Assembly (NCBI GenBank): GCA_050125095.1
Contig: JASFEA010000063.1
Coordinates: 1-18,474 of the forward strand
Source of the DNA: a bacterium
Lineage (GTDB): Bacteria > Arandabacterota > Arandabacteria > Arandabacterales > JALGWA01
Direction of reading: 5' to 3'
Length of the DNA stretch: 18,474 bases
Under the pieces are notes generated by a model that had not been told where the DNA came from, did not search any database, and saw nothing but the letters and a program-made list of their open reading frames with translations. Below, one piece after another: positions 1-18,474 of this stretch. Numbering within the stretch: the stretch's first letter is position 1; each line of letters starts with the position of its first letter. Made by a program: the position numbers and the translations under genes.

Positions 1-2
1 GC

Positions 3-770
3 CTCAGGATCGTCGAGCAGGCCGCGAAGATGGTGCCGGGCCAGATCTGGATAAAGCGCGTGATCGCCGAGATGGGCGGCAAGGACACCATCGTGGTCGA
101 CAGCGATACCAATCTGGACGACGCCGTCGACGGCGTGCTCCGCTCGGCTTACGGGTTCCAGGGCCAGAAGTGCTCGGCGTGCTCGCGGGCGATCGTCGTG
201 AGCAGCGTATATAAGAAGTTCATCGACAAGCTCGTGCCGAAGGTCGAGGCTCTCAAGGTCGGACCGCCGCAGGACTTCGGCAATTACATGGGGCCTGTGG
301 TAAACGAGGGCGCCGCAAAGAGCATCATGAACTACATCAAGATCGGCAAGACGGAAGGCAGACTCGCGGCGGGCGGCAACAGGCTCTCCCGCAAGGGGTA
401 CTTCATCAGGCCGACCGTCATAAAGGACGTCAAGCCCCACGCCGTCATCAGCCAGGAGGAGATATTCGGACCGGTGCTGGCGGTGATCAAGGCGCGCAAT
501 TTCGACCATGCTCTTGAGATCGCCAACAATACCGAGTACGGGCTGACGGGCGCGGTGTACACCCGCAACAGCAGCAAAATCAACAAGGCCAAACAGGTCT
601 TCCATGTGGGCAACCTTTACATCAACAGGGGATGCACGGGCGCCCTCGTAGGCGTGCACCCGTTCGGGGGCTTTAATATGTCGGGCACCGACTCCAAGGC
701 CGGCGGAAGAGACTATCTGTTGCTGTTCACGCAGGCCAAGTCGATCTCCGAGAAGATCAGAAAGCGGTGA
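3..770 (+). CDS. pruA: 1-pyrroline-5-carboxylate (glutamate-gamma-semialdehyde) dehydrogenase, aldehyde dehydrogenase family; 5'-truncated by the window edge
   Basis: The frame is open from base 3 (LRIVEQAAKMVPGQIWIKRVIAEMGGK). ALDH motifs: EMGGK (catalytic Glu), FQGQKCSACSR (catalytic Cys), EEIFGP, YGLTG. PFGGFNMSGTDSKAGG is typical of RocA/PruA-type P5CDH. Confidence 0.9.
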   Translation, partial: LRIVEQAAKMVPGQIWIKRVIAEMGGKDTIVVDSDTNLDDAVDGVLRSAYGFQGQKCSACSRAIVVSSVYKKFIDKLVPKVEALKVGPPQDFGNYMGPVVNEGAAKSIMNYIKIGKTEGRLAAGGNRLSRKGYFIRPTVIKDVKPHAVISQEEIFGPVLAVIKARNFDHALEIANNTEYGLTGAVYTRNSSKINKAKQVFHVGNLYINRGCTGALVGVHPFGGFNMSGTDSKAGGRDYLLLFTQAKSISEKIRKR

Positions 771-775
771 TGTGA

Positions 776-2044
776 ATGAGGTCAGGACTCTGGATTCTGC
801 TCCTGGTGATACTCGCCGGAATCGTGGTCGGCACCCTGCTTAAGGGCAGGCTCAACGAGCCGGAGGAAATCGACGACATTACGGTGCTCCGTAGAATATC
901 CGCGGTGGAGGACCCCGAAGCCAAGATCGAGCAGCTGAGGCAATTCCTCGTGGACTACCCTGAAACCGAGTACGAGTCCGACGCCTACTACATGATCGCA
1001 GGCACAATGTTGAACGACCAGGGTGACACGAGCGGCATGATAGCTTTTGCAGAGGAGACGCTCGATGAGGTGGATGACCCGGAGACGCGGGCGGTCATGT
1101 ATTACAGGCTGTACCGCGCGACCGCCGAAACGCAGCCCAACGAAGCGTACATGTATGCGGTCAAACTGCGCGACTCGGGCCTCGAGGTCGCCTGGGTCTA
1201 CAACTACATCGCCTACGACTACGCGGAGAAAGCCAAGCGGCTGATGCTGGCGGCAACCCTGGCCGACCGGGCCGTCGAGTTCGCGGAGTCCGCAGAGGAC
1301 AGCTCGAGCTACCTTGATACGCGCGGATGGGTCCACTTCATGGCGCGTGATTATGAAAAGGCGCTTATCGATCTCGAAGAGGCCGTGCGCATTACCCCTG
1401 AGCCCTCCCCCGAAATCCTGGGGCACCTCGCCCGGGCCCAGCTCAAGTTGGGAAGGTCGGACGAGGCTTTCGACACCTTCCGCACCGTTCTGGTGATGGG
1501 TGAATACAGTGACGCCCGGGAGAATATCGCCGCCATCATGGACCGGAAGGGTTACACTGGCCGGCAGCGAGAGGCGTTCGAGAGCGACCTCTGGGCCGAG
1601 CGCATGGACCGGGCGGAGACTGTCGACCCGTTCACCCTGAAGACGCTGGACGGCAGCGATTTTGAATACAGGCCGGATGCGTCCACGCTGTCCATCATCA
1701 ACTTCTTCAGCCCCACCTGAACGCCGTGCCGTACGGAGTTACCGTACCTGGAAGAGGTTCACTTGGCATACGGCGACAGGGGAGTCAAGGTCATTATCAT
1801 CGACACCAGGAATCAGACTGAGGCGACGCGGAAGATAATGGACGGTATTCCGGTGACGGCCCTTGTCCTCCTGGACGACCGGCGCCTGGCCTGGGACGTC
1901 TTCGAGATTGTAGGGACGCCCACGACGCTTATTGTCGACGCGCAGGGCCGCGCCGTGTTCACGCATATAGGCTACGCGGAAGAGATGAACGAGATGCTCT
2001 CAAGCGAGATAGAGGCAATGCTCGAGAGGTCCGAAGCCCTCTAA
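776..2044 (+). CDS. Membrane-anchored TPR-repeat protein fused to a TlpA/ResA-like thioredoxin domain; probable selenoprotein (UxxC, TGA at 1718-1720), 422 aa by readthrough
   Basis: ORFs 776..1720 and 1763..2044 are in the same frame, separated only by TGA. Readthrough gives IINFFSPT-U-TPCRTELPYLEEVH, which aligns with the TlpA motif NFWATW-C-xxC-xxExP. The cis-Pro motif GTPTTLIVDAQGR follows. N-terminal hydrophobic anchor and TPR-like helices (YLDTRGWVHF...YEKALIDLEEAV; ILGHLARAQLKLGRSDEA) are present. Confidence 0.8.
1731..1747 (+). promoter_or_regulatory. Candidate bacterial SECIS hairpin
   Basis: GTACGG-AGTTA-CCGTAC forms a perfect 6-bp stem with a 5-nt loop containing GU. 16 nt separate the TGA (1718-1720) from the loop. 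Confidence 0.6.
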
Positions 2045-2048
2045 AAAT

Positions 2049-2123
2049 CCGGGGTCAGGTCTTGAAATGCATAATTTCAAGGTGCCTGACCCCTTCTCTA
2101 TGTGCATTCTGAGACCTGACCCC
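2049..2123. repeat. Intergenic REP-like repeat cluster (three copies of the GGGGTCAGG.../...CCTGACCCC unit); may also act as a terminator
   Basis: GGGGTCAGGTCTTGAAATGCA at 2051-2071; inverted imperfect copy ATTTCAAGgtgCCTGACCCC at 2074-2093, forming a hairpin; third inverted copy TGCATTCTGAGACCTGACCCC at 2103-2123 (18/21 identical). Confidence 0.75.
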
Positions 2124-2131
2124 ATTTTAGC

Positions 2132-2161
2132 TTGAACCGGCATTACCTGCGATGATATGAT
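2132..2161 (+). promoter_or_regulatory. Putative sigma70 promoter for the 2182 ORF
   Basis: TTGAAC (2132-2137), 18-nt spacer, extended -10 TG-A-TATGAT (2156-2161), then a GGGAG SD-like sequence before the ATG. Confidence 0.45.
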
Positions 2162-2181
2162 AGTGGGGCGGGGAGAATGAG

Positions 2182-2532
2182 ATGTCACGTCTGTCGCTGC
2201 TCACAGTTATTCTGCTTCTCTCGCTGTTCCCCTGGCCTGCGCCGAGCCATGCCCAATCCGATGAGCCCATTCAAATCGCCGCAGCCGGCGACCGGGCTAC
2301 AGAACTCCAGAAGCAGAGCGACTACCATCAGCGTGTGGAGAAGAAAAGGGAGGAAAGGGAGATTGAGAAGCAGGTTGCAGCCATAGCGGATACACCGACC
2401 GGTGGCCGGATTCTTGACGATTTCGTGCTGATATTGCTGGCGGTTTCCGCCAGCGCCATCTTCCTCATATCCAGACGAGTGCGCAGCGGGCGCAGGAGAA
2501 GAACGCGACCTCGCAGCCTACCGCTTGGCTAG
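2182..2532 (+). CDS. Hypothetical small exported or membrane protein (signal peptide, charged helix, C-terminal TM, Arg-rich tail)
   Basis: N-terminal signal peptide ending ...SHA-Q; charged helix (RVEKKREEREIEKQ); TM FVLILLAVSASAIFLI followed by RRVRSGRRRR; upstream SD and promoter-like sequence. Confidence 0.6.
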   Translation: MSRLSLLTVILLLSLFPWPAPSHAQSDEPIQIAAAGDRATELQKQSDYHQRVEKKREEREIEKQVAAIADTPTGGRILDDFVLILLAVSASAIFLISRRVRSGRRRRTRPRSLPLG

Positions 2533-3324
2533 CGTGCTCGAAGGGCAGTACTTCTCAAGGACGCAGTCTTCGCATCTCGGTTTCCTCGACTTGCAGACCT
2601 CCCTCCCGTGCAGGATGACTATGAAAGAGAAAGGCTGCCACTCGCGCCTCGGCAGAATCTCCATGAGGTCGAATTCAATCTTGACGGGGTCGGTATGCCG
2701 GGTAAGCCCGAGCCTGCCGCTCACTCTCTTCACGTGAGTGTCCACTGCGATCGCCGGCTTGTTGAATGAGCCCGCCAGAACAACATTTGCGGTCTTCCTT
2801 CCGACTCCGCGAAGTGTCACCAGGTCATCTATATTGTCGGGGACCCCGCCGTCGAACCTATCGACGATATCCTGCGACAGCTCCATAATGCTCTTGGCCT
2901 TGGCCCTGAAGAATCCGGTTGGTCTTATCTCCTTCTCCAGCGTGCTCCTTCTTGCCCGCGCGAAGTCCCCGGGAGAGCGGTACTTCTTGAAGAGAGTCTC
3001 CGTGACCATGTTAACCCTCTTGTCCGTGCACTGCGCCGAGAGAACAGTGGAGACCAGAAGCTGGAAGGGATTTTCGGCCTTAAGTGCGGTGCCCGCACCG
3101 GGGTACTTCTTCCTGAGGACAGCCGCTATGCGCTTTGCTCTCTTTCTGAGATCTTCCCTGCTCTCCCTTCCTCGCCTCGCCGGTGCTCTGCTTTTCGCTT
3201 TTACGGCGGCGGACCTTCCCTGGCGTTTCGCCTTCGATGACTTCCCCGCCGGCTCATTCTCTTCGGGTTTCTTCTTCGCGGACTTCTTCCCTGAAGACTT
3301 CTTCTTCGCCGTCGCCTTCTTCAT
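2518..3324 (-). CDS. nth: Endonuclease III (DNA glycosylase/AP lyase) with a Lys/Arg-rich N-terminal extension
   Basis: PFQLLVSTVLSAQCTD; HhH motif LRGVGRKTANVV; AVDTHVKRV; 4Fe-4S motif C-x6-C-x2-C-x5-C (CKSRKPRCEDCVLEKYC). Confidence 0.93.
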   Translation of the reverse strand: MKKATAKKKSSGKKSAKKKPEENEPAGKSSKAKRQGRSAAVKAKSRAPARRGRESREDLRKRAKRIAAVLRKKYPGAGTALKAENPFQLLVSTVLSAQCTDKRVNMVTETLFKKYRSPGDFARARRSTLEKEIRPTGFFRAKAKSIMELSQDIVDRFDGGVPDNIDDLVTLRGVGRKTANVVLAGSFNKPAIAVDTHVKRVSGRLGLTRHTDPVKIEFDLMEILPRREWQPFSFIVILHGREVCKSRKPRCEDCVLEKYCPSSTLAKR

Positions 3325-3353
3325 TTGTCTCGCTCTCCGTAGGACAATACGCC

Positions 3354-3989
3354 TTAGAATTCCTCCTTGACCTTCTGACTCAAGTGGGAGTTCCTGTTCC
3401 AGCTAATGAGTGTGAAAGCCCCACCGGCGTGTTCAAACACGCAATAGGCGGCGTTGTCGGTATAGAACTTCCAGAAGTAAGGCGGCGGCACATTGAGCAT
3501 GAAGGCGGCGAGCACCTTGATCACGGACCTGTGCGTCACGATAGCGATGGCCCCGTCCCTTGCCGAGACTATATCCTCAAGCCTGGCCGAGGCCCTTTCC
3601 CTGACGTCCTCCACGGACTCCCCTCCCGGCACCACCAGGTGCTCGGGCTCGGTTGTCCAGCGCCGCCACTCGTCCGGATAATCCTCCATCACCTTCTTCT
3701 TCGGGACGCCCTGCCAGCTGCCGAGGTTTATGTTATTGAAAGCCTCGTCAACCTCGTAGCCAATCCCGAGCGCAACCGCGATTGTCTGCGCGGTTACCGC
3801 CGCCCGTTTAAGCGGACTCGTCAAGATAAGATCGATCCCCTCGCCGACCAGGGCGTCTCCTGTCTCCCGGGCCTGCTTGAGGCCCACTTCGTTGAGGTCT
3901 ACGTCAAACCGGCCCCTGAATACCCCCAGGCGGTTGAATTCAGTCTCTCCATGCCTGACGAGATAGATCCTGGTGTTACGCTTTGCCAT
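3354..3989 (-). CDS. Histidine phosphatase / phosphoglycerate mutase family protein (PhoE/CobC/GpmB-like)
   Basis: LVRHGET, SPLKRA, PGGES and VTH motifs. Start placed at MAKRN (3989), overlapping the nfi stop, rather than at 4040. Confidence 0.85.
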   Translation of the reverse strand: MAKRNTRIYLVRHGETEFNRLGVFRGRFDVDLNEVGLKQARETGDALVGEGIDLILTSPLKRAAVTAQTIAVALGIGYEVDEAFNNINLGSWQGVPKKKVMEDYPDEWRRWTTEPEHLVVPGGESVEDVRERASARLEDIVSARDGAIAIVTHRSVIKVLAAFMLNVPPPYFWKFYTDNAAYCVFEHAGGAFTLISWNRNSHLSQKVKEEF

Positions 3990-4692
3990 TGCTATATCCG
4001 ATCGGTTGCCCAACCCCGCCCCGCACCTCGAGCTTGCCAACGCTCAGACTATGCGCAAGCCTAAGGGGCTCCGGGATACGATACCTGGGCGAACACGCCA
4101 GCACAAGGTCAACCGATGTCGCCAGGTCGATGCGGTTCCCCACGGACACGTATACGGGCTTCACCCCGTCCCGTGTGCGGACGGCCGCCCCTACAATGCC
4201 TCCGTCCCTGCCGTGCATATAAGACATCGAGCCCTTCCTGGCGCCGGGCTCGGCGAACTCCCCGTAGAGCACGGACTTGGCGCAGCCCAGAACGGGAGAG
4301 TCCAGCAGTATGCCGACATGAGTCGCCAGCCCCAATCCGCGCGGATGGGCAAGCCCCTGGGCGTCGCACATGAGAACGTCGGGTGCGGTCCGCACTTTCT
4401 CAAGACAGCCGAGGAGCGCCGGAACCTCCCGGAACGAAAGATAACCCGGCACATAGGGAAATCTCACCTTCCCCTTCTTGACGCGCGTCTCGACGATCTC
4501 CAGATCGGGGAAGGTGAGTACCACGACCGCCGCCAGCACTGTATTCCTGTCAGGTAAACCCACGTCGGCCGCAGCTATCAGCCGCACCTCGCGGCCGTCC
4601 CACTCGGGTACCAGCCGCCCTGCGAGCGCCAGCTGAATCTCTTTTGCGCGCGCGGTGCCGACCTTCCAAGGATGGAGTTTGAGGTATTTCAA
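3976..4692 (-). CDS. nfi: Endonuclease V (deoxyinosine 3' endonuclease)
   Basis: AADV, FPYVPGYLSFRE, DAQGLAHPRGLGLATHVG, GCAKS, PVYVSVG and RYRIPEPLRLAH motifs; ATGA-type overlap with the rhomboid stop. Confidence 0.93.
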   Translation of the reverse strand: MKYLKLHPWKVGTARAKEIQLALAGRLVPEWDGREVRLIAAADVGLPDRNTVLAAVVVLTFPDLEIVETRVKKGKVRFPYVPGYLSFREVPALLGCLEKVRTAPDVLMCDAQGLAHPRGLGLATHVGILLDSPVLGCAKSVLYGEFAEPGARKGSMSYMHGRDGGIVGAAVRTRDGVKPVYVSVGNRIDLATSVDLVLACSPRYRIPEPLRLAHSLSVGKLEVRGGVGQPIGYSNGKA

Positions 4693-5483
4693 GAACGCTT
4701 CCCGCTCTGCTTCTGGAGGAAGTTCCTTTCGCGGTTTGAAAGGGAATCCAGGCCCTCGCGGTTGATCTTATCTAGGATGCGGTCAACCTCGGCCCTGAGC
4801 TCCCGCTCCTTCTCCTCGTCTTTCCGCCGTGCCGCATCCTCTCTCCTTACCATGCTCCTCCGCTGCCAGCGCTTGAGGGGATACGTGATCCTCTCCCACT
4901 TAAGATATAAGTAGCCGACCACGAGACCGCCGAGATGCGCGAACCTCGCTACACCGGCATTCGGAAGGGCGAAAAGCGAGATGAGCTCGATGAGGCCGAT
5001 GAGCACGGCGAAATGCTTCGCCTTGATCCGGATGAAGAAATAGAGAAGAAGTTCCCTGTCCGGAAACGCCATCCCGAAGGCGATAATGAGCCCGAAGACG
5101 GCGCCGGATGCTCCTATGATGGGCACTGCCGAGTGCGGCTGCACGAGAACATTGACGACGCCCGCGCCGGCTCCCGTCACCAGGTAGTACTTGACGAACT
5201 CCCTGCTTCCCCAGTAGCGCTCCAGCTCCGAACCCATCATCCACAGGAACAGCATGTTGAAGAATATATGAAGCAGGCTGCCGTGGAGGAACATGTAGGT
5301 CACGAGTTGCCATATGAAGCCGCGCCCGAGAACCAGGGCCGGCACGAGGCCGAATACCCTGAGGTAGCCATCGGGGGCGAAGTGCTGGACGATGTAGAGT
5401 ATCAGGTTGATGAGGATGATAAGGCGCACGGCCCGGCTCAGCCCCGGCACTCTCGACTGGGTATATCTCATCCTGTAACTCAT
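4689..5483 (-). CDS. Rhomboid family intramembrane serine protease with a C-terminal soluble helical domain (DUF6576-like)
   Basis: WQLVTYMFLHGSLLHIFFNM, catalytic GASG, AHLGG and multiple TMs; tail EVDRILDKINREGLDSLSNRERNFL. Confidence 0.9.
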   Translation of the reverse strand: MSYRMRYTQSRVPGLSRAVRLIILINLILYIVQHFAPDGYLRVFGLVPALVLGRGFIWQLVTYMFLHGSLLHIFFNMLFLWMMGSELERYWGSREFVKYYLVTGAGAGVVNVLVQPHSAVPIIGASGAVFGLIIAFGMAFPDRELLLYFFIRIKAKHFAVLIGLIELISLFALPNAGVARFAHLGGLVVGYLYLKWERITYPLKRWQRRSMVRREDAARRKDEEKERELRAEVDRILDKINREGLDSLSNRERNFLQKQSGKRS

Positions 5484-5510
5484 GACCGGCTCCTGCTGCT
5501 GTTCCGCCTT

Positions 5511-5539
5511 ACTCTATTAGAAGCCCCATGCGAGGTCAA
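5511..5539 (-). promoter_or_regulatory. Putative sigma70 promoter for the rhomboid-nfi-phosphatase-nth operon
   Basis: Minus strand TTGACC (5539-5534), 17-nt spacer, TAGAGT (5516-5511). Confidence 0.5.
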
Positions 5540-5563
5540 GATGCAAGCGCCCGCCGTCTTGGC

Positions 5564-5592
5564 TTGAAAGTGCGTGTTCCTTCATATAGTAT
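5564..5592 (+). promoter_or_regulatory. Putative sigma70 promoter for the CHAT/ECF operon
   Basis: TTGAAA (5564-5569), 17-nt spacer, TAGTAT (5587-5592); GGGAG SD at 5601-5605 before ATG 5610. Confidence 0.5.
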
Positions 5593-5609
5593 GCGCGTGG
5601 GGGAGCCCG

Positions 5610-7022
5610 ATGAAGCCTATCGAGATTGAGATCATTCCCGTCTCCGGCGAAAGCGTCTCGGTGAGCGTGAACTTCAGTGCGCCGGGTTCCACACCTATCA
5701 TAAGGCGCTGGCATGTGGAGAGGTCCACGCTAGATGAGATAAACGGTACCATCGAAGAAATCGTAGAGAAGGCGCTTGCCGGGCGGTCCAGAGGCGGCGG
5801 AGGATCTCAGGGCGGCCCGGAGGGCGGACCCGCCGAGAGCCTCGAGAACGCCGGTCGGACTTTCTTTGAGGTCCTCTTCAGGCAGCAATGCGACCGCCTC
5901 AGAGCTGCGTTGCGCGGAGGCGACCTGTATTTCATCTTCAAAGTCGACCGCTCTCTTGCCCACCTTCCTTTTGAAGTGCTGCATGACGGCGAGAGGTTCC
6001 TCTCCAGGGACTTCGCCCTCGGAAGAGTGATTTATTCCGAAACCGGCCACCAAAACTCGGGCGGAGCCGCCGGCGGCGACCGGGTCCTGATACTGGGCGA
6101 CCCGTCCGATGACGCCGCCATAAGGGACGACGTCGAACGCGAGGTCGATTCGCTCAGGGACCTTTTCAAGAAAGAGGGCGGATACGGGATGACCATAGGC
6201 ATGGGACGGGAGGTAAGCGAACGCATGGTCCTGTCCCTGCTTCCCGAGACGGCCCTGCTTCATTTCACGGGTCACGGCGCGGCGGCCGCGGACGGCACCG
6301 CGGGCCTTGAGCTTTACAGGGACAGAGTTCTCTCGGCGGAGGCATTCAAGGGCGTCAAACATCCGCCCGCGGTGGCTTTCTTCAATACCTGCTCGACCGC
6401 GTCCCATGAGGCCTGGAGGTCTCCGCTGGGCATCATGGAAGCTCTTATATCAAGGGGCACCCGGGCCTGCATAGCCCCTGTATGGGACGTGGCAAGCGGC
6501 GCGGCGACATCCGTCGCCCTGGCCTTCTACAAACACCTGCTTAAGGACGAGACTTTCGGCGAGGCCCTGCGGAAAGCGAGAGCCGACGTGGCCCGGAACG
6601 GCGACCCCGGCGACCCGACATGGGCGGCCTACGCGCTTTACGGCGATCCGCTGTCCGGGCTCCGGACGCCCACGGGAGATGCGCGGGGCCGGAGGCGCGC
6701 GGGCATCGCCCTGCGCGTGGTATTCGCGGTGATAGCTGCGCTGCTGCTCCTTCTCACCCCCAGGACCATGGACAGGCGCATGACCGATGTTGTCGTTCCG
6801 GTCGAGGTCGGGTATGTTATATTCGAGTCCGAGCCGGCCGACGCAAGGATCTTCTTAGACGGCAAGGATGTCGGATTGACACCGGCGGCGATCGAGGTTA
6901 GCGTAGGTGAACATCAGGTAGCCCTGATGAAGAAGGGATACAGAAGGTGGCAGGCATCGGTAGACGTAAAGAAGGGTCCGGAAACCGTGGTGCGGGCCGT
7001 CCTGCAGAGAACAGAAGAGTAG
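5610..7022 (+). CDS. CHAT-domain (caspase/HetF-like) cysteine protease with a single TM helix and a C-terminal PEGA domain
   Basis: CHAT motifs LAHLPFEVL, LHFTGHG (His, 6273), FFNTCST (Cys, 6390), PVWDV, FYKHL, WAAYALYGDP. TM IALRVVFAVIAALLLLLT after RRR. PEGA motif ESEPADARIFLDGKDVGLTP...VGEHQVALMKKGY. Start moved to ATG 5610 because of the SD. Confidence 0.88.
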   Translation: MKPIEIEIIPVSGESVSVSVNFSAPGSTPIIRRWHVERSTLDEINGTIEEIVEKALAGRSRGGGGSQGGPEGGPAESLENAGRTFFEVLFRQQCDRLRAALRGGDLYFIFKVDRSLAHLPFEVLHDGERFLSRDFALGRVIYSETGHQNSGGAAGGDRVLILGDPSDDAAIRDDVEREVDSLRDLFKKEGGYGMTIGMGREVSERMVLSLLPETALLHFTGHGAAAADGTAGLELYRDRVLSAEAFKGVKHPPAVAFFNTCSTASHEAWRSPLGIMEALISRGTRACIAPVWDVASGAATSVALAFYKHLLKDETFGEALRKARADVARNGDPGDPTWAAYALYGDPLSGLRTPTGDARGRRRAGIALRVVFAVIAALLLLLTPRTMDRRMTDVVVPVEVGYVIFESEPADARIFLDGKDVGLTPAAIEVSVGEHQVALMKKGYRRWQASVDVKKGPETVVRAVLQRTEE

Positions 7023-7660
7023 CCTCGGGACGCTCCCACCCCCGCCGGGCACTGTCCCTGTTGCTTACATTCACCGTGTTGGCCGCATCGACGCTTCCGT
7101 TATCTTCCCCCGCCGTGGGCGCGGAGCTCCCCGACCTGGACGTAAAGGACCTATGGGACTATCCCGAGAACCTCCGCTCCATAGTGGCGGACGGGACGAC
7201 TCTCTTCTTCATATGCGACCCCAAGGTCAAGGAGTGCAGAGAGGGCGCGGTCTTCATCGAGAATCGCGCCTCGGGCATCAATGAGGCCGGCGCGAAGCTC
7301 GTGATGCTGTTCCGCGGCGGCGCCGCGGAGGTACGCAGCGCAGCTCTCGACATGGACCTGGACTCCGACATCTACATAGACGAGGACGGCCACGTCATAG
7401 ATGCGGTTCTCGATGAGGACATCCTGCCCGCCCTCCTCCTGGTCTCAAGCGATGGGACGGTGCTAGAGGCCGTTTACGGCGGCGGAGAATCCCTGGCCGG
7501 CAACATCGAGCAGATTCTACGGTACGAAGTGCCGGAGCCGCCCCCTCCCCCGCCGGCACAGGTTGCCGAGCCCGAAAAGAAAGGCTCGGGCAGGTGGAAG
7601 TACATTCTTGGAGCCGCCGCGGTTATCGTCCTGGGGACTCTCCTGTTCGTAATCGACTGA
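6947..7660 (+). CDS. Exported thioredoxin-fold (redoxin-like) protein with a Pro-rich linker and C-terminal TM anchor; start codon uncertain
   Basis: Signal-like segment RRALSLLLTFTVLAASTLPLSSPAVGA; redoxin-like LPDLDVKDL...LFFICDPKVKECRE...LPALLLVSSDG; PEPPPPPP linker; C-terminal TM YILGAAAVIVLGTLLFVI. Confidence 0.65.
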   Translation: MAGIGRRKEGSGNRGAGRPAENRRVASGRSHPRRALSLLLTFTVLAASTLPLSSPAVGAELPDLDVKDLWDYPENLRSIVADGTTLFFICDPKVKECREGAVFIENRASGINEAGAKLVMLFRGGAAEVRSAALDMDLDSDIYIDEDGHVIDAVLDEDILPALLLVSSDGTVLEAVYGGGESLAGNIEQILRYEVPEPPPPPPAQVAEPEKKGSGRWKYILGAAAVIVLGTLLFVID

Positions 7661-7661
7661 T

Positions 7662-8243
7662 ATGAACGAGAAGGAACTGATCACAAGATGCATCGCGCGC
7701 GACGAGACGGCATGGCGCGAGTTCCTGAAACGATATTCCGACTGCATATACGGCTCGGTAGTCAACCTCCTCAAGAAGTACTCCATAGACTCGGCGGAGA
7801 CGGCCGAGGATATCTACGCCGGGGTTATCGAGAAGCTGCTGGCGGACGACTGCAGGGCGCTTAGGAACTTCAAATGGAACTCCAAGGTCACCACGTGGCT
7901 TATAAGCGTCTCGCGAAACAAGGCCTACGATCACCTGAGGACGCTCAAGCGCAGGCCTACCGTATCCCTCGACGCGCCCGTCTCCGATGACGAGGACGAG
8001 TACATCGATTTCATCGCGGGCGACATCCGCCTCGATCACGATATTGAGGTGAGACTCACCGTGGAGGAGGCTCTCGACAGGCTCCCGCCCGGGGACAGGC
8101 TCATACTCAGGTTCTACTATATTGAAGGACTCAAGGAAAGGGAGATAGCAGAACTGCTCGGCATGTCAACCGACGCCCTATCTGCAAGAAAATCAAGGGC
8201 TTTAGCCAAACTGAGAAAACTCGCAGCAAAAGGGCGGCTGTAG
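7662..8243 (+). CDS. ECF-type RNA polymerase sigma-70 factor
   Basis: Region 2 (ELITRCIARDETAWREF...AEDI...TTWLISVSRNKAYDHLR) and region 4 HTH (LDRLPPGDRLILRFYYIEGLKEREIAELLGMS...RALAKLR); 193 aa. Confidence 0.92.
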   Translation: MNEKELITRCIARDETAWREFLKRYSDCIYGSVVNLLKKYSIDSAETAEDIYAGVIEKLLADDCRALRNFKWNSKVTTWLISVSRNKAYDHLRTLKRRPTVSLDAPVSDDEDEYIDFIAGDIRLDHDIEVRLTVEEALDRLPPGDRLILRFYYIEGLKEREIAELLGMSTDALSARKSRALAKLRKLAAKGRL

Positions 8244-8267
8244 GCGTCACATCTGTAGAGGACAGAA

Positions 8268-8888
8268 ATGAAGAATGAATGCCTGACAGAATCCGAAATC
8301 TCAGCCTATGTAGACGGCACCCTCGACGCCAGGGCGCGGGAGAGGGCCGAGTCCCACCTCGAGCGCTGCCGGCTCTGCCTTAACAGCGTGGCCGAGGTAA
8401 AGCGGCTCACCGACGCCCATGAGGCGAGCCCCGTCCCAACGCCCGAAGCGGCGCTGGCCCGCGCCAGAGAGATCATAGAGGCCGGTGCGGCATCGATGCC
8501 CGGATTCTCGATAGTGGCCGCCCTCCGCCAGGGGATGGTCAAGATCATAGAGACCACGGGCAGCCTCCTGCCCCCTCCCAGTCTCGAGCCCGTAGCCGTC
8601 AGAAAGCGAAGAGACTCGAAGCTACTGCCGCGCGTCGCAAGGTCCATCTCGGGCTACTTCGTAACGGTGGAACTCAGTGAAGAGGGCGGCGAATTCGCCG
8701 CCGAGATTACGATCGTCGACGAGAAGACGTCCGAACTGCCGGACGGTCTAAAGGCCAAGCTGCACGCCGAGGGCGGGAGCGAGACCAGGTACTCGCGGTC
8801 GGGAAGGCTGCGCTTCACTTCTCTTAAGAGGGGGACGTCTGACCTCCATCTTGAGAACATCGGCAGGATAAGACTCGAGATCAGGTAG
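8268..8888 (+). CDS. Putative zinc-binding anti-sigma factor (zf-HC2/ZAS) with a soluble beta-rich C-terminal domain
   Basis: CLTESEISAYVDGTL...ESHLERCRLC (H-x3-C-x2-C); directly downstream of the ECF gene; SD GAGGA; no TM helix visible. Confidence 0.85.
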   Translation: MKNECLTESEISAYVDGTLDARARERAESHLERCRLCLNSVAEVKRLTDAHEASPVPTPEAALARAREIIEAGAASMPGFSIVAALRQGMVKIIETTGSLLPPPSLEPVAVRKRRDSKLLPRVARSISGYFVTVELSEEGGEFAAEITIVDEKTSELPDGLKAKLHAEGGSETRYSRSGRLRFTSLKRGTSDLHLENIGRIRLEIR

Positions 8889-8904
8889 GCCGCGCGGCCC
8901 GAAC

Positions 8905-10032
8905 CTATTCCCGGACTTCTGAAAGAGCTTTCACGGCCTCGGCTATATCCCTGCGCGCGACCACTCCCACTACCCTCCCGGCATCGACAACCGGAAGGCC
9001 CCCGCAGCGCTCCGCCACGGTCTTCCTGAGCGCGCCGGCCAGGTCATCATCTGGATGAACGCTTATCCTCCCGGCATCCGTTCGCATCACGTCTGCGATG
9101 GGGGTGCTTGCCCATGAGCTCCTCGGCTTGCTCTTTATGTCTTCCACCGCGACCACTCCCCTGAGCTCGTCGCCTTCAACAACCGGGTAGCAGTCGAGGT
9201 GGTGTCTGAAGACGTATTGGTCGACGAGTTCCTGTATGCTTATGTGTGCCGGCACGGCCACGAAATCGCCGCGCATGGCGTCGCGCACTTTGAAGCCCTT
9301 AAGCGCCCCCTCAACCACTACATGGAAGTAGGACGCGGAAGCGGCCTGCCTTAGGAAAAAGCCTATCATGACCATCCACAGCCCGAAGATGAAGTAGCCC
9401 CTGAACACGGCCAGGAAACCGAAGAGCACAAAGATGATACCCACGACGCTTCCCACCCTGCTCGCGACATAGGTGGCCTTCTTTATGTTGCCCGTGCCTT
9501 TCCAGATGGCCGCGCGAAGAAGCCTCCCGCCGTCCAGAGGAAAACCGGGAATGAGGTTGAAGACGCCCAGCATGCCATTCACGATGGCGAGGTACCTGAA
9601 TACCGGCGCGACTCCCCCCGTCTCCCCCGCGGTTCGCACAACGTAATAGACAATGAAGAAAACGAACATGAGCACGAAACTCATCGCCGGACCCGCGATG
9701 GCTATCTTGATCTCGGTCCCGGGCTCATCCGACTCGCGTTCCATCTGCGACACGCCGCCGAAGAGGAAGAGCGTGATCCTCCTGATGGGAACGCCGTGCC
9801 TCTTGGCGACGTAAGAGTGGCTGAGTTCGTGGAGAACCACCGAAGCGAAGAGCATCAGGGCGGCGACCAGGCCCATTATCCAGTAGGAGGCAGCCGACAT
9901 GTCGGGGTAGTTTGTCGGGAAGTAGAGCGAGACAAGGCTCCATGAGACCAGGGCGAATATGATGAACCAGGATACGTTCACCTCTACGGGAATCCCGAAG
10001 ACCTTGAAGAGCCTGATGCTTGTCTTCAGCAT
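8905..10032 (-). CDS. Site-2 protease (M50 zinc metalloprotease) with two CBS domains
   Basis: HELSH, LFLFGGVS, IAIAGP, FNLIPGFPLDGGR, several TMs, and a C-terminal CBS pair (YPVV...GVV; LPVVD...GVV); SD GGAGG. Confidence 0.92.
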   Translation of the reverse strand: MLKTSIRLFKVFGIPVEVNVSWFIIFALVSWSLVSLYFPTNYPDMSAASYWIMGLVAALMLFASVVLHELSHSYVAKRHGVPIRRITLFLFGGVSQMERESDEPGTEIKIAIAGPAMSFVLMFVFFIVYYVVRTAGETGGVAPVFRYLAIVNGMLGVFNLIPGFPLDGGRLLRAAIWKGTGNIKKATYVASRVGSVVGIIFVLFGFLAVFRGYFIFGLWMVMIGFFLRQAASASYFHVVVEGALKGFKVRDAMRGDFVAVPAHISIQELVDQYVFRHHLDCYPVVEGDELRGVVAVEDIKSKPRSSWASTPIADVMRTDAGRISVHPDDDLAGALRKTVAERCGGLPVVDAGRVVGVVARRDIAEAVKALSEVRE

Positions 10033-10087
10033 AGTACCTCCGCGGGGTAGTCGCCCGCCATACCGGCCATTCTTGCTCCGCAGTCAC

Positions 10088-10164
10088 ATCCTATCATGCG
10101 GGCCTGCCCGTGCCAAGTCAAACGCCGGGCGGCCTTGACGCAGAGGCTTGCCCTGGCATAGTCT
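10088..10164. promoter_or_regulatory. Candidate divergent sigma70 promoters for S2P (minus) and polX-ligA (plus)
   Basis: Minus: TTGGCA (10116-10111), 17 nt, TG-A-TAGGAT (10093-10088). Plus: TTGACG (10135-10140), 18 nt, TAGTCT (10159-10164). Confidence 0.4.
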
Positions 10165-10181
10165 TGTAGGCGGGGGCGATT

Positions 10182-11897
10182 ATGGAAAACCACCGCATAG
10201 CCGACATCTTCGACGAAATCGCGGACGTGCTCGAACTTAAGGATGAGAGCGTATTCCGCATAAGGTCGTACCGCAGGGGCGCCAGGGCGATCCGCGATCT
10301 ACCGGAAGACGTCAAGACCCTCGCCGAGAGCGGGGAGCTTATCAAAGTCCCCGGCATAGGCAAGAGCCTGGCCGAGAAGGTCGATGAGGTGCTCGCAACC
10401 GGCACGTCCGAGTTCTACGAGAAGATCAAGAAGGCGCCCGAGTATCAGCTCCTGCCCCTGCTCGGCATTCCGGGCCTGGGGCCCAAGCACGTAATGCAGT
10501 TCTACCGGGTGCTCGGCATCGCGAGCGTCGATGACCTCGAGAATGCCGCCAGGGCCGGCAGGCTCCACGACCTGGAGCGCGTCGGAGAGAAACTCGAGGA
10601 GAAGATCCTCAAGGGAATCGAGCAGCACCGGAGAAGCAGCGGGCGGTACCGGCTCGCGGAGGCGCTCCATCATGCGGAGTCGGTGGTCGAAGAGCTCAGG
10701 AGACTCAAGGGAGTGACGAGAATCGACGTGGCCGGCAGCTGCCGGCGCATGAAGGAGACCATTGGTGACATCGACATACTCGTTATCTCCAGGTCCCCCG
10801 AGAAGATCATGGAAGCGTTCACCAGGATGAAGTCCGTGGCCGATGTGATAGCCCGCGGCGGCACCAAGTCCAGCGTCCTCCTCCGCGCCGGCATTCAGGT
10901 CGACCTCCGGGTTCTGCGCAAGGAGAACTACGGCGCGGCGCTGCATTATTTCACGGGGTCGCAGGACCACAATGTAATCATCCGGGACCGCGGCAAGCGC
11001 AGGGGCCTGCGCGTGAGCGAGTACGGCGTCTTCAACGTGGAGACCGCCGAGCGGCTGGGCGGCGAGACCGAGGATGAGATATTCTCCGCGCTCGGGCTTC
11101 CGTTCATCCCCCCGGAGCTCAGGGAGAACAACGGCGAGTTCGAGGCCGCGGACGAGGGCCGGCTCCCGAAACTGGTTGAGATGAAGGACATCAGGGGCGA
11201 CCTGCATATGCACACCACCGCCACCGACGGCCGCAATACGCCCAGAGAGATGGCGACGGCAGCCAGGAAGCGGGGCTACAAATACATAGCCATAACAGAC
11301 CATTCCCAGGCAGTCAGGGTCGCGGGCGGCCTCGACGCCGACGAGCTGGCGGCGCATATAAAGGCCGTCAGGAGGGCCAACAAAGAGGTCAAGGGCATCG
11401 AGGTCCTCACCGGTGTCGAGGTGGACATATTGAAGGACGGCAGTCTCGACCTGCCCGATGACGTCCTCAAACAATGTGACGTCGTGGTGGCCGCCGTCCA
11501 CTCGGGCTTCAGCATGCCGGAGAATAAGATGACCGAGCGCATACTCAGGGCCTTCGAGAACGAGAACGTGAACATACTCGCCCACCCGACGGGAAGGATA
11601 ATCGGGGAACGCGAGCCATATGAGGTGGACATGGAGGCCGTGATAAAAGCGGCCAGGGAGTCCGGGGTTGCGCTTGAACTCAACGCGTTTCCCGATAGAC
11701 TTGACCTCAAGGACGTGCACTGCCGCGCCGCCAGGGAAGCCGGAGCAAAAATAAGCATCGGTACGGATTCGCATGCCGTGGCTCATCTTGATAACATGCG
11801 CTACGGAACAGGCACGGCGAGAAGGGGCTGGTGCGAGGCCGGAGACATAGTGAACACGATGACGCTCGCGAAGCTCAGGAAGTTCATCGCGCGCTAG
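10182..11897 (+). CDS. polX: DNA polymerase X / PHP 3'-5' exonuclease
   Basis: HhH motifs VPGIGKS and IPGLGPK; GSCRRMKETIGDIDIL (DxD intact); QVDLR; YFTGS. PHP motifs DLHMHT, TDHS, HPTGR, TDSH. Confidence 0.95.
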   Translation: MENHRIADIFDEIADVLELKDESVFRIRSYRRGARAIRDLPEDVKTLAESGELIKVPGIGKSLAEKVDEVLATGTSEFYEKIKKAPEYQLLPLLGIPGLGPKHVMQFYRVLGIASVDDLENAARAGRLHDLERVGEKLEEKILKGIEQHRRSSGRYRLAEALHHAESVVEELRRLKGVTRIDVAGSCRRMKETIGDIDILVISRSPEKIMEAFTRMKSVADVIARGGTKSSVLLRAGIQVDLRVLRKENYGAALHYFTGSQDHNVIIRDRGKRRGLRVSEYGVFNVETAERLGGETEDEIFSALGLPFIPPELRENNGEFEAADEGRLPKLVEMKDIRGDLHMHTTATDGRNTPREMATAARKRGYKYIAITDHSQAVRVAGGLDADELAAHIKAVRRANKEVKGIEVLTGVEVDILKDGSLDLPDDVLKQCDVVVAAVHSGFSMPENKMTERILRAFENENVNILAHPTGRIIGEREPYEVDMEAVIKAARESGVALELNAFPDRLDLKDVHCRAAREAGAKISIGTDSHAVAHLDNMRYGTGTARRGWCEAGDIVNTMTLAKLRKFIAR

Positions 11898-13955
<2,058 letters not shown>

Positions 13956-14008
13956 CCTTCACACCCGATGGTCTTCCCGCCGGCCGGCCGTCGCACCAGC
14001 CGACCGTC

Positions 14009-15001
14009 CTAGGTGTTGAACTCGATGATATCCTTATCGTCGAGAACGTGGTCTTTCTCCACGGGCAGGCCGTCGATCTTGGTGTGCCCCCAGACCCTCG
14101 CAAACTTGAGATTGTCGTGGAAGTCGCGGTGCACGATTCTCGCCATTTCTATGACCGTCGTGCCCCGCTTCACAACGTAGGGTTTGGAGAGGTCCGGCTC
14201 CTTATGCGGCGCCTTGGAGTATACCCTGACGATGCCGAGCATCTCGTATATGGTCTGGCGCAGCGCCTCCAGGCCTTCTCCCGTCTCGCATGAAACCTTG
14301 TGTATGGGAAGGTCTCCGGACACGGGCTTCACTATGTCGATGAAGATATCGGCTCCGCCCAGGTCGATCTTGTTCACAACCATCAATGTTTTTTTCTGGG
14401 TCATCTTGAAATCGGACTGCTCCTGGTCGGTCTCCAGCGCCGTGAGCCTGATGCCGACCTTCTCCAGGCGGTCCAGCACCACCGCGAGCGACTTGTCGGG
14501 ATCGAGGTCCGCGAGGCCCAGAACCAGGAGTACTATGTCTGACTCCCTTATGATGTTGCTGAACCACCCCTCATAATGGGTCTCGGTTATCGGCGGCATA
14601 TCCACCAGCTGTATCTGTATGTCTTCATAGGGCATCATTGCCGGCTGGACTTTCATTGTCGTGTAGGGATAGGCTGCTATCTCGGGCTTGGCGTGGGTCA
14701 GCCTGTCCACAATGCTGCTCTTGCCGGAATTGGCCGGCCCGATCAACACGACCTGCCCCGCGCCCGACCGCTTAACGTACTCGCCGTGCCTTTTGCCGCC
14801 GCCGCCCTTCTTGGCCTGCTGGACCTCTTCGGTCGTGCGCGAGATGCGGCGCTTGATGTCGGCCTGGAGCTTCTCGGTTCCCTTGTGCTTGGGTATGACC
14901 GAGAGCATCTCGCGCAGCGCGCGCAGCCGGTCCCGCGGGGTCGCGGCTTCCTTGTACTTCCTCTCGGCCTCGAAATACTGTGGTGTCAGATTAGCGGGCA
15001 T
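14009..15001 (-). CDS. OBG-family GTPase, DRG/RBG-like, with a C-terminal TGS domain
   Basis: N-terminal PKHKGTEKL...IK; G1 GPANSGKSS, G2 YPYTT, G3 QLVDMPP, G4 NKID; TGS RVYSK...IHRD-like VHRDF...FARVWG. Start at MPANL (15001) with SD GGAGG. Confidence 0.88.
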   Translation of the reverse strand: MPANLTPQYFEAERKYKEAATPRDRLRALREMLSVIPKHKGTEKLQADIKRRISRTTEEVQQAKKGGGGKRHGEYVKRSGAGQVVLIGPANSGKSSIVDRLTHAKPEIAAYPYTTMKVQPAMMPYEDIQIQLVDMPPITETHYEGWFSNIIRESDIVLLVLGLADLDPDKSLAVVLDRLEKVGIRLTALETDQEQSDFKMTQKKTLMVVNKIDLGGADIFIDIVKPVSGDLPIHKVSCETGEGLEALRQTIYEMLGIVRVYSKAPHKEPDLSKPYVVKRGTTVIEMARIVHRDFHDNLKFARVWGHTKIDGLPVEKDHVLDDKDIIEFNT

Positions 15002-15141
15002 TGTTCCCTCCGATAGGATTCTAACCACGAAGCGGCGCCTATTCAACCGGTTCGTGGCTCTTAGATGAGAGCTTGAGGGCCGGCATTTTGTTTGGTACAG
15101 TGCCAGTGAAGCAGAGACCCGGACACAAGGACGGTGTGCTG

Positions 15142-15741
15142 ATGACGAGAATCCTGTTATTCGCCTTCCTCGTATCAGTCATAGTGGCCGCGATGGCCGC
15201 ATGCGCTTCAGCCGGCTCCGATCACAAGATCGCGGTTCACGTGCTCCCCCACTCCGGCAGGACCTGCGGAAGCCTGCCCGAAGTCCCGGGCTGCATGGAC
15301 ATCAACCATACGCTTGCCGGCTGCGGCGACGTGGATGTCTATCCTGTGGTCTACGATATTTCGGGCATAACCGGCATAGAGGTCGGACTCACCTGGCCTG
15401 AGGCCTGGGGCAGCTGCGCCTTCACGCCATGTGGCATCGATTTCGTCATATCCGAGATCAAATGGCCCGGCGACGGGATCAGCGGCACCTGGCAGGAATG
15501 CCAGAACGACCGCTCAATAGTGATCGGGTTCGGCTGGCTGGCGCCGACATCGGCGGGGCTGATATGCCCCTCACCTCTCCGGACCACCGGTTTCATCGGT
15601 GTTGCCGACTGCGGCTACGCCGTATATCCGCCGTCCGCCCTGTTCTGCGCAGGCGTATGCGGCGCCGAGGGCGATGACCCCTGCGGAGGCCGCGTCTCAG
15701 AGGACAGGACCTGGGGCTCGATCAAGTCCATGTACAGGTAA
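15142..15741 (+). CDS. Secreted Cys-rich hypothetical protein with a C-terminal TWGxIKxxYR motif
   Basis: Signal peptide MTRILLFAFLVSVIVAAMAACASA with SD AAGGA; 12 Cys; ends EDRTWGSIKSMYR. Confidence 0.75.
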   Translation: MTRILLFAFLVSVIVAAMAACASAGSDHKIAVHVLPHSGRTCGSLPEVPGCMDINHTLAGCGDVDVYPVVYDISGITGIEVGLTWPEAWGSCAFTPCGIDFVISEIKWPGDGISGTWQECQNDRSIVIGFGWLAPTSAGLICPSPLRTTGFIGVADCGYAVYPPSALFCAGVCGAEGDDPCGGRVSEDRTWGSIKSMYR

Positions 15742-15759
15742 TACGCGGTTCTGCCATTG

Positions 15760-15802
15760 TGCATTTCAAGACCTGACCCCGGCTTCTCTGACCCCGGCTT
15801 CT
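15760..15802. repeat. REP-like repeat copy plus a 15-bp tandem duplication
   Basis: TGCATTTCAAGACCTGACCCCGG (15760-15782) is the exact 23-bp reverse complement of 2049-2071. CTGACCCCGGCTTCT occurs twice in tandem (15773-15787, 15788-15802). Confidence 0.8.
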
Positions 15803-15810
15803 AACTTCCC

Positions 15811-15839
15811 TTGATTAAGGCGCGGGCTGGCAATATAAT
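15811..15839 (+). promoter_or_regulatory. Putative sigma70 promoter for the M16 peptidase pair
   Basis: TTGATT (15811-15816), 17-nt spacer, perfect TATAAT (15834-15839); strong SD AAGGAG before ATG 15903. Confidence 0.65.
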
Positions 15840-15902
15840 CGGGAGGATTGCATTATCATACGACACTATCGGGAGCAACTGCAAACGGGAAAGGAGAGAG
15901 AA

Positions 15903-17762: not shown

Positions 17763-17776
17763 AGAGGAGGTCCGAG

Positions 17777-18474
17777 ATGTTCTCACAGAGAGCTGGAATC
17801 GGCAGCAGATTCTGGACATCCGTCCTCATCTCTGCCCTTGTCCTGATGTTCGCCGCCACGTCGACGGCCCGCCTGCCCAAGAAACTCAGGTACGGCGAAA
17901 TCGAGTTCGAGCCCCCCGAGCCCGAGACGATAGAGTTCGCCAACGGCCTACACGGCTATTTCCTGGAGGACCATGAGATCCCGGTTATCGACATCGTCAT
18001 CATGTTCAAGGCCACATACCCGGAAGAGTCCAAGACAGGGCTTAACAGCCTGGCGGGGTGGGCCATAAGGAACGGCGGCAGCGCCGGTTTCCCCAAGGAG
18101 ACCATAGATGACGAGCTCGAATTCGTGGGCGCGTCCATCGAGACCAGCGCGGGCGGCTTGACCGGATCCATAAACGCCAACTTCCTCACCAAGGACGCCG
18201 AGATGGTGGTCGAGATTCTTACAGATATCATCGTCAATCCGGCGTTTGCCGAGGACAAGGTCGAGCTTCAGAAAAAGTCCATGATAGAGTCGATCCGGCG
18301 CAAGGCCGACGACCCATGGGACCTGGGACGCAGGGAATACGCCAAGCTGATCTACCATAACCACCCGGCCGGCCGTGAAGCCACCGTGGAAACCGTATCG
18401 GGCCTCACGCGCGATGACGTGGCGGAATTCCACCGCAAGTACGTCAGGCCCAACAACGCGGTTATCGGTATAAC
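17777..18474 (+). CDS. Exported M16 family non-catalytic partner subunit; 3'-truncated by the window edge and absent from the ORF track
   Basis: SD GGAGG then ATG 17777, open to the end: MFSQRAGIGSRFWTSVLISALVLMFAATSTA...FANGLHGYFLEDHEIPVI...KTGLNSLAGWAIRNGG...IDDELEFVGASIE...NPAF...HPAGR...LTRDDVAEFHRKYVRPNNA. HxxEH is absent at the equivalent position. Confidence 0.88.
   Translation, partial: MFSQRAGIGSRFWTSVLISALVLMFAATSTARLPKKLRYGEIEFEPPEPETIEFANGLHGYFLEDHEIPVIDIVIMFKATYPEESKTGLNSLAGWAIRNGGSAGFPKETIDDELEFVGASIETSAGGLTGSINANFLTKDAEMVVEILTDIIVNPAFAEDKVELQKKSMIESIRRKADDPWDLGRREYAKLIYHNHPAGREATVETVSGLTRDDVAEFHRKYVRPNNAVIGI

Follow-up and report, generated by a model that had tools for sequence, protein, structure and literature searches.

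A predicted membrane-anchored selenoprotein with a TPR-like domain and a ResA-like thioredoxin fold, split by gene calling at an in-frame TGA in Candidatus Eisenbacteria

The stretch of DNA analysed here (the window; 18,474 nucleotides, positions 1 to 18,474 of the forward strand of contig JASFEA010000063.1, assembly GCA_050125095.1) comes from a genome of the uncultured phylum Candidatus Eisenbacteria (Ca. Eisenbacteria). Positions 776-2044 very probably hold a single gene for a predicted membrane-anchored, outward-facing selenocysteine (Sec, U) protein that joins a tetratricopeptide repeat (TPR)-like domain to a thioredoxin fold of the ResA/DsbE/TlpA type. The reading frame starts at ATG 776, meets its first in-frame stop, TGA, at 1718-1720, and then stays open to TAA 2042-2044; with the TGA read as U, the product has 422 amino acids and the active-site region ...IINFFSPT-U315-TPC318-RTELPY.... 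Translation with genetic code table 11 yields two open reading frames (ORFs) instead, one of 314 amino acids (776-1720) and a remnant (1763-2044). An earlier note on this DNA, made from the letters alone, had placed the TGA at the first position of a CxxC motif in a frame running on to 2044, which both the translation and a Pfam match across the TGA confirm. The in-frame stop almost certainly encodes selenocysteine, and the two annotated fragments are, with the same near-certainty, one predicted protein of 422 residues. The features of the gene are as follows.

776..2044, + strand: predicted full-length selenoprotein gene, 422 codons plus TAA (open frame, orthologues with one in-frame TGA, selection)
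785..850, + strand: hydrophobic helix, residues 4-25, LWILLLVILAGIVVGTLL, a predicted uncleaved membrane anchor of inferred orientation (AlphaFold2 helix, conservation)
875..1612, + strand: all-alpha TPR-like repeat domain, residues 34-279, 14 helices (Pfam, AlphaFold2)
1631..2035, + strand: ResA/DsbE/TlpA-like thioredoxin-fold domain, residues 286-420, split by the TGA in annotation (Pfam, Foldseek)
1718..1720, + strand: TGA, the predicted Sec codon U315, at the N-terminal (attacking) position of UxxC (column conservation, Cys relatives)
1727..1729, + strand: TGC, the predicted resolving Cys318 of U-T-P-C (near-invariant column in family alignment A2)
1731..1747, + strand: hairpin resembling a selenocysteine insertion sequence (SECIS), GUACGG-AGUUA-CCGUAC (pairing, covariation, RNAalifold, frozen synonymous site)

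In the 422-residue product, Pfam TPR families match over approximately residues 138-240 (TPR_2, 35 bits, cut-off 27; TPR_12, 31.8 bits, cut-off 30.1), while AhpC-TSA (41.5 bits, cut-off 26) and Redoxin (31.3 bits, cut-off 26.6) cover residues 285-403, so that the thioredoxin-fold match straddles the TGA. An AlphaFold2 model built on an 11-sequence alignment (mean predicted local distance difference test score 91, predicted template-modelling score 0.82) consists of a helix at residues 4-25, a low-confidence linker at 22-31, 14 helices at 34-279 and a thioredoxin fold at 286-420, and the start of the anchor, M[KR]SGLWIL, is conserved in orthologues. The top-ranked Foldseek match in the PDB was Chlorobium tepidum DsbE (3gl3; template-modelling (TM) score 0.90, root-mean-square deviation (rmsd) 1.7 Å over 136 residues), followed by B. 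subtilis ResA (1st9, 2f9s and variants; TM 0.87-0.89) and further by StoA, M. tuberculosis DsbE/DsbF and B. japonicum TlpA; over 3gl3, 1st9, 2f9s, 3erw and 1jfu the TM score (target) ranged from 0.64 to 0.90.

The active site reads U315-T-P-C318-x-x-E321-x-P323 and is accompanied by a G-T-P-T-T cis-proline loop. Residues E321, P323, T381, P382 and T383 are invariant in alignment A2, and the Cys318 column departs to Ser only in a single CxxS form (genome G014). We take E321/P323 and the T-P-T loop to correspond to the CxxCxxExP arrangement of ResA (C74, C77, E80) and its cis-proline loop. The protein thus resembles ResA, CcmG (DsbE), TlpA and StoA in its fold (TM 0.87-0.90, rmsd 1.7-2.1 Å, about 136 residues), its N-terminal anchor, its xxC-x-x-E-x-P active site and its T-P-T loop. 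It differs from them in having Sec for the attacking Cys, in a 245-residue TPR-like domain between anchor and fold, and in a gene that, unlike those systems, is not adjacent to resBC or ccdA; moreover, [SH]-P-T precedes Sec where most Cys forms have A-T-W.

Conservation of the TGA was assessed by a six-frame search of 41 genomes, the window's own included. A full-length match with exactly one in-frame TGA was present in 11 of them at 39-74% identity, namely the own genome, a second one of the same genus (74%) and nine from a second family of the same order (39-44%); G014 gave a match without a stop, and one more match was interrupted by a contig end. In the protein alignment the TGA column is identical in 11/11 read-through orthologues, and frame and spacing across it are kept in all orthologues. 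Cys stands in this column in G014 (locus L049; SPT-C-GPS), in the database protein P0003 (65% identity; SPT-C-GPC) and in the metagenome locus L094 (codon TGC, C-G-A-C), so that the homologues carry either TGA or Cys at the position that the earlier note had singled out for comparison. Within the phylum, the gene was found (E <= 1e-30) in 13 of 18 genomes, all 13 in one order; the three members of this order without a match are represented by genomes of 85, 87 and 57% completeness, and no gene was found with this query in two genomes of another family of the same class.

The same architecture with a TGA at the same place was found in a Deferribacteres metagenome-assembled genome (MAG) (L053, 28% identity, NFFSPT-U-GPC) and in an Acidobacteria MAG (L054, 27% identity, NFWHYN-U-GFC). 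A scan of metagenomes gave 66 loci, of which 29 were examined and 27 cover the site in a protein with this architecture (L091, L102 and L104-L139, being short, thioredoxin-only or not spanning the site, were left out). TGA occupies the site in 26 of these 27, the remaining one being the TGC of L094, and among these 26 is a second clade, whose proteins have about 540 amino acids and the motif FWSYG-U-G[PA]C; some of the loci are near-copies of other loci (for example L077 of the genome locus L048, and L074 of the window). Distant Cys forms are numerous and mostly carry WATWCGPC.

Several further loci were noted in these searches. One orthologue, L032 (G009:C5:9025-10281), has beside the conserved TGA an extra in-frame TAA in its TPR part (...IGN*LLR...), a sign of either damage to this copy or faulty assembly. 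More distant thioredoxin-fold matches with one in-frame TGA (G017:C6:33598-34032, G039:C102, G039:C35, G023:C55, G023:C2 and G019:C35) may be further unannotated selenoproteins of this fold. Loci L055-L069 from the contig scan are ordinary Cys thioredoxin-fold proteins without a repeat domain and are uninformative on known selenoprotein families.

The two sides of the TGA are under equal purifying selection. Compared with the orthologue of genome G002, the ratio of non-synonymous to synonymous substitution rates (dN/dS) is 0.12 upstream and 0.105 downstream of the TGA, and the GC content at third codon positions is 0.81 and 0.78, respectively; the downstream decay expected of a nonsense pseudogene, which the earlier note had named as a reason to drop the selenoprotein, is thus not seen. 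In three DNA runs, each from a different study, assembled contigs cover positions 1300-2200 and all keep the TGA at 1718-1720, the site for which that note had advised a look at the reads. Two of these runs differ from the window at 15 other places, and the third, X1, is near-identical to it and may be the window's own source. A metatranscriptome run (X6) contributed two 151-nucleotide contigs over 1417-1712, which end short of the TGA and are no proof of transcription.

The genome itself (268 contigs, 91% complete) contains the machinery for Sec insertion, another point raised by the earlier note. Matches to selA (561 bits), selB (380 bits) and two copies of selD (398 and 355 bits) all exceed curated cut-offs, and selC is represented by a tRNA-Sec scoring 75.5 bits, above its cut-off, which ARAGORN reports as tRNA-SeC with anticodon tca. 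One selD copy (G000:C59:10192-11321; L011, L016) has an in-frame TGA (SCSG-U-ASK) with a hairpin of its own, lies immediately upstream of the tRNA-Sec gene and may itself encode a selenoprotein. The second selD match (C26) lies inside an open frame of 753 amino acids, which suggests a fusion protein.

A hairpin downstream of the UGA was characterized from an alignment of 48 nucleotides, counted from the UGA, for 12 sequences. Its 6-bp stem is formed by positions +14 to +19 and +25 to +30 from the U of UGA, with the loop at +20 to +24 starting 17 nucleotides after the codon, and it can form at the same offset in every orthologue. In the helix columns (14-19/25-30) 97.2% of cells are paired, two of six pairs show compensatory change (14/30: GC in seven, UA in two, AU in one; 16/28: GC in ten, GU in one, AU in one), and the covariation score was reached by 1 of 500 shuffles; shifting the partner by 1-3 columns lowered pairing to 25-61%, and RNAalifold returned the same helix unprompted. 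Within the loop sequence, AGUUN, positions G21 and U22 never vary. In E. coli fdhF, the critical loop G and U lie at +23/+24, and the selD hairpin of the own genome has its loop at +20 to +24, in the same register as the hairpin described here. A codon control was run because the hairpin overlaps coding sequence (C-R-A-E-[LF]-P-[HY]): among 22 four-fold codons with an invariant amino acid gene-wide in the 12 sequences, the third base is frozen in one, the Pro codon of the hairpin, and column 15 is an invariant T despite a varying amino acid.

A number of observations weigh against the selenoprotein as outlined, or at least fail to favour it. The stem of 6 bp is short, the 73 nucleotides that follow the UGA do not surpass shuffled sequences in folding (z -0.26), and Rfam at gathering score gave 0 matches in the whole window; folding of the whole region is uninformative, and the hairpin emerged only from comparative analysis. 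Its loop and part of its stem encode E-[LF]-P, and since this protein motif is also conserved in Cys-type relatives, part of the nucleotide conservation is protein-driven. The hairpin is also retained in two Cys forms, G014 and L094, where it would be a leftover of recent conversion from Sec to Cys. At the protein level, NCBIfam models scored below their cut-offs (ResA 61.5 against 170, TlpA 38.1 against 230, DsbE 36.3 against 123.15, StoA 32.5 against 210), as did two selenoprotein-related models, NF041054 (ResA-like WAxxUGC_long selenoprotein; 17.1 bits against 300, the motif here being FFSPTUTPC) and SelL_rel_redox (22.1 against 120); the protein would be ResA/TlpA-like in its working, yet it is a member of no curated equivalog. 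The anchor is preceded by one K/R residue and closely followed by two, a pattern of charges for which the positive-inside rule is ambiguous. Furthermore, CcdA and ResBC are encoded on other contigs than the gene, no neighbour in the loci compared within the order hints at a substrate or redox partner, and the neighbours of L053 and L054 are unrelated and do not share the synteny of the order.

Other accounts of the TGA have to be set beside its reading as Sec. A Cys codon (TGC or TGT) turned into TGA by nonsense mutation or by an assembly or sequencing error, with a dead downstream part, would be in keeping with the close Cys forms P0003 and G014 and with the TAA elsewhere in the G009 copy, from which it is clear that damaged copies or assembly errors do occur; its probability is next to negligible given the same TGA column in 11/11 orthologues and 26/27 metagenome loci, the downstream dN/dS of 0.105 and the TGA kept across three assemblies. 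It is also exceedingly improbable that two real products are made, a TPR membrane protein of 314 amino acids and a small protein from an internal start such as TTG 1763. Such a split matches the output of gene callers (22 of 25 database hits, 22 of the top 150 clusters ending at ...PT, four C-terminal fragments), but the TGA falls inside the thioredoxin fold, about 30 residues after its onset (strands at 286-311), and inside its active site, a fragment from 1763 would lose the first three strands and the active-site motif, and the kept frame and spacing speak for continuity. Because the TGA is conserved, selection is equal on both sides and the assemblies agree, sequencing error, recent nonsense mutation and the two-gene reading are excluded for practical purposes. 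Frame conservation could be explained by read-through alone, with near-cognate insertion of Trp or Cys or a genome-wide sense code for UGA, and this we regard as very improbable: TGA is a stop elsewhere in the genome (the upstream aldehyde dehydrogenase ORF ends in TGA 768-770), orthologues of the gene themselves end in TGA, the residue in relatives is Cys rather than Trp or Gly, and the full Sec machinery occurs together with a hairpin in the register of the selD hairpin.

With UGA read as Sec, SelB-GTP carrying Sec-tRNA(Sec) would bind the hairpin while the ribosome stands on the UGA, inserting Sec315. The soluble part would lie outside the cytoplasmic membrane, as in ResA, CcmG and TlpA, which we consider quite probable. 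This orientation is favoured by the extracytoplasmic fold class and by the starts of relatives: in L053 and L054 the N-terminal hydrophobic stretch runs up to ...LGC and ...QSC, respectively, and 6 of 22 truncated relatives have, judged by eye, a hydrophobic start ending in a small residue followed by Cys, which makes these starts lipoprotein-like. The opposite arrangement, an N-out/C-in anchor tethering cytoplasmic TPR and thioredoxin domains in the manner of the chaperone-thioredoxin CnoX/YbbN, is quite unlikely. It would agree with the K/R residues around the helix and with CnoX being a cytoplasmic fusion of thioredoxin and TPR; against it stand the lipoprotein-like starts of distant family members, the nearest structures, all extracytoplasmic oxidoreductases (DsbE, ResA, StoA, TlpA, DsbF), and the domain order of CnoX, which is opposite to that of the protein studied here.

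In the outward-facing arrangement, the selenolate of U315 would attack a disulfide or other oxidised sulfur of a substrate protein, C318 would resolve the intermediate to give a selenenylsulfide, and the substrate would probably dock on, or be held by, the TPR domain. Among the genes of the genome are CcdA/DsbD_TM (38.4 bits, above cut-off) and, for system II cytochrome c maturation, ResB and ResC/CcsA; CcdA is a possible electron source, and because re-reduction by this route is known for ResA, CcmG and TlpA, cytoplasmic thioredoxin might re-reduce the selenoprotein through CcdA. We propose a Sec-based extracytoplasmic reductase of protein disulfides (or sulfenates), with the TPR domain holding the client. 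The main functional rival has the same exported selenoprotein reduce chiefly peroxides or sulfenates, in the manner of peroxiredoxins (Prx) or glutathione peroxidases. Sec is typical of peroxidases, and AhpC-TSA is the best Pfam match; Sec forms of the fold are moreover listed as 'Prx-like thiol:disulfide oxidoreductase' in tables of PMC13188914 and PMC1794560. This chemistry is nevertheless unlikely, as the structural neighbours are ResA, DsbE and TlpA rather than peroxiredoxins, the ResA-type CxxCxxExP arrangement is present, and the Prx signature PxxxTxxC is, by eye, not found in IINFFSPTU.

For the exported reductase, further parallels combine a TPR surface for an unfolded client with a thioredoxin-fold redox partner. 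The TPR apocytochrome chaperones CcmI and NrfG work with CcmG/CcmH, and CnoX/YbbN is a thioredoxin-TPR chaperedoxin. CcmI and CcmG are separate proteins of system I, while the genome studied here has system II; CnoX is cytoplasmic and has the reverse domain order. Pfam and NCBIfam scans of the protein gave no match specific to CcmI/NrfG or CnoX. As a tentative extension, which we consider possible but not likely, the protein may be the founding example, so far unannotated, of a phylogenetically broad exported family of extracytoplasmic 'seleno-chaperedoxins', in which a TPR client-holding domain is combined with a Sec-containing ResA-like reductase and Sec is ancestral with repeated recent loss to Cys. 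Its members are seen in Ca. Eisenbacteria, in the MAGs of Deferribacteres and Acidobacteria, and in a minimum of 22 clusters formed at 50% identity.

How far annotation conceals the Sec form was seen in protein collections. In a collection of 5.8 billion proteins, 22 of 25 hits stop at the TGA (about 310-322 amino acids, one of 237), and the names on the stopped records, if any, are 'TPR repeat protein' and, in one case, 'YciM'; together with the table 11 ORFs, which also end at the TGA, this bears out the earlier note's expectation that gene callers mis-split such genes. When 1.84 billion representatives were searched with a profile, 119 matched at E <= 1e-30. Among the best 150 representative clusters, 22 end at ...NF[WFM][SH]PT, the residue before Sec, four comprise a C-terminal piece only, 70 run uninterrupted through both the TPR and the thioredoxin part, and 54 fall in no class. 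The spanning proteins are Cys forms, mostly with WATWCGPC and a few with ...PT-C... like the Sec group. Because 70 of the best 150 clusters span both parts, the architecture is common: these widespread, unnamed Cys-type TPR and TlpA-like fusions have the same domain order as the protein studied here, with Cys for Sec. The Sec form is, from the sequences collected, a distinct and diverse predicted subgroup hidden by standard gene calling. A homology search with residues 275-422 only returned three proteins and added nothing.

Related Sec proteins have been predicted before. A table of the 2026 review PMC13188914 lists four related predicted families, among them 'Prx-like thiol:disulfide oxidoreductase' (PF00578, UxxC) and 'DsbG-like protein', and the first two of the four, the Prx-like family included, recur among the predicted families in tables of PMC1794560. 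As tabulated there, these families share with the protein Sec at the redox position of a thioredoxin fold of TlpA/AhpC-TSA type and the existence of Cys orthologues; the protein differs in SPT-U-xPC instead of WAxxUGC and in its TPR domain, a comparison drawn from the tabulated descriptions. The terms TPR, tetratricopeptide, Eisenbacteria, signal peptide and extracytoplasmic do not occur in the available text of PMC13188914. Literature searches, with most subscription journals and the supplementary family lists of large screens outside their scope, gave no account of a TPR-ResA-like selenoprotein, and such screens may have included the family before under an unspecific label; nor did they find a paper joining Ca. 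Eisenbacteria and selenocysteine. UxxC thioredoxin-fold selenoproteins, TlpA-like ones included, are well known, and no new principle is involved. The earlier note had called an exported Sec enzyme of this kind unusual: exported selenoproteins resembling thiol oxidoreductases are already in the literature and the architecture is widespread in metagenomes, which qualifies that remark. Its central proposal, one 422-residue selenoprotein with an anchor, a TPR domain, a TlpA/ResA-type fold and Sec at the attacking position of UxxC, is supported by every computational check that the note had put forward.

In a tree of 39 proteins, rooted at the midpoint only, 30 Sec forms make up one group together with four Cys forms, each of which is nested on its own; with the exception of these four, the Cys-type TPR and TlpA-like fusions lie outside the Sec group. 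The Cys form L049 (G014) has the Sec form L090 as its sister (support 100/100), the sister of L094 is L101 (96/85), P0003 falls inside the clade of the genus from which the window comes (100/100), and P0064 sits on a long branch. Sec thus appears to be the older state in the group, with a few recent replacements of Sec by Cys, a direction that remains an inference because the root is a midpoint root. In the genus of L049 and L090, the protein is a 500-amino-acid form whose N-terminal repeat segment is duplicated; the Cys version reads C-G-P-S, having lost the resolving Cys, and its sister L090 retains U-G-P-C.

Within the order, synteny comprises an aminotransferase, an aldehyde dehydrogenase, the selenoprotein gene and a small ORF, followed on the opposite strand by an HhH-GPD glycosylase, a histidine phosphatase, EndoV and a rhomboid protein. 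In the window the small ORF lies directly downstream of the gene (2182-2532, + strand; 116 amino acids) and has a signal-like N-terminus and the motif TELxQQSDHHRRV and ends in a hydrophobic helix with a basic tail. Pfam gave no match for it; its position is conserved in three of the four other loci compared, and the ORF taken from L052 fails to align. A partnership with the selenoprotein is conceivable, as is mere synteny. Right after the stop codon, at 2051-2124, lies an intergenic palindrome (-39.1 kcal/mol, z -6.4) that also occurs at 15756-15782. The palindrome is one copy of a dispersed REP-like repeat, matched 67 times in the own genome, and the summed contig depth at 2044-2136 is about 5-10-fold that of the flanks; it was dropped as a marker of the gene end on this ground, and it may also act as a terminator. 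No terminator turned up behind the stop codon in a consensus scan, whose only terminator-like hit (1644-1658) lies inside the ORF. Further downstream, at 5574-8888 (+ strand), a CHAT-domain protease-like protein that also carries a PEGA domain precedes an unassigned ORF of 237 amino acids, an extracytoplasmic function (ECF)-type sigma factor and a zf-HC2 anti-sigma factor.

Gene calls that end at residue 314 under a plain TPR label conceal a predicted redox enzyme throughout this family, and a gene model aware of read-through would correct many records. The combination of an anchor or lipoprotein signal with a TPR domain and a UxxC ResA-like fold represents a distinct architecture for thioredoxin-fold selenoproteins, and its presence points to the uncultured phylum Ca. 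Eisenbacteria as an active user of selenium. The sister pairs L090/L049 and L101/L094, each of a Sec and a Cys form, offer a natural experiment on what Sec gives to an envelope reductase. Should the proposal of an extracytoplasmic seleno-chaperedoxin prove true, the family would capture unfolded or oxidised envelope proteins, for example apocytochromes in an organism with system II, and would reduce them faster, or with greater tolerance of oxidants, than Cys enzymes do.

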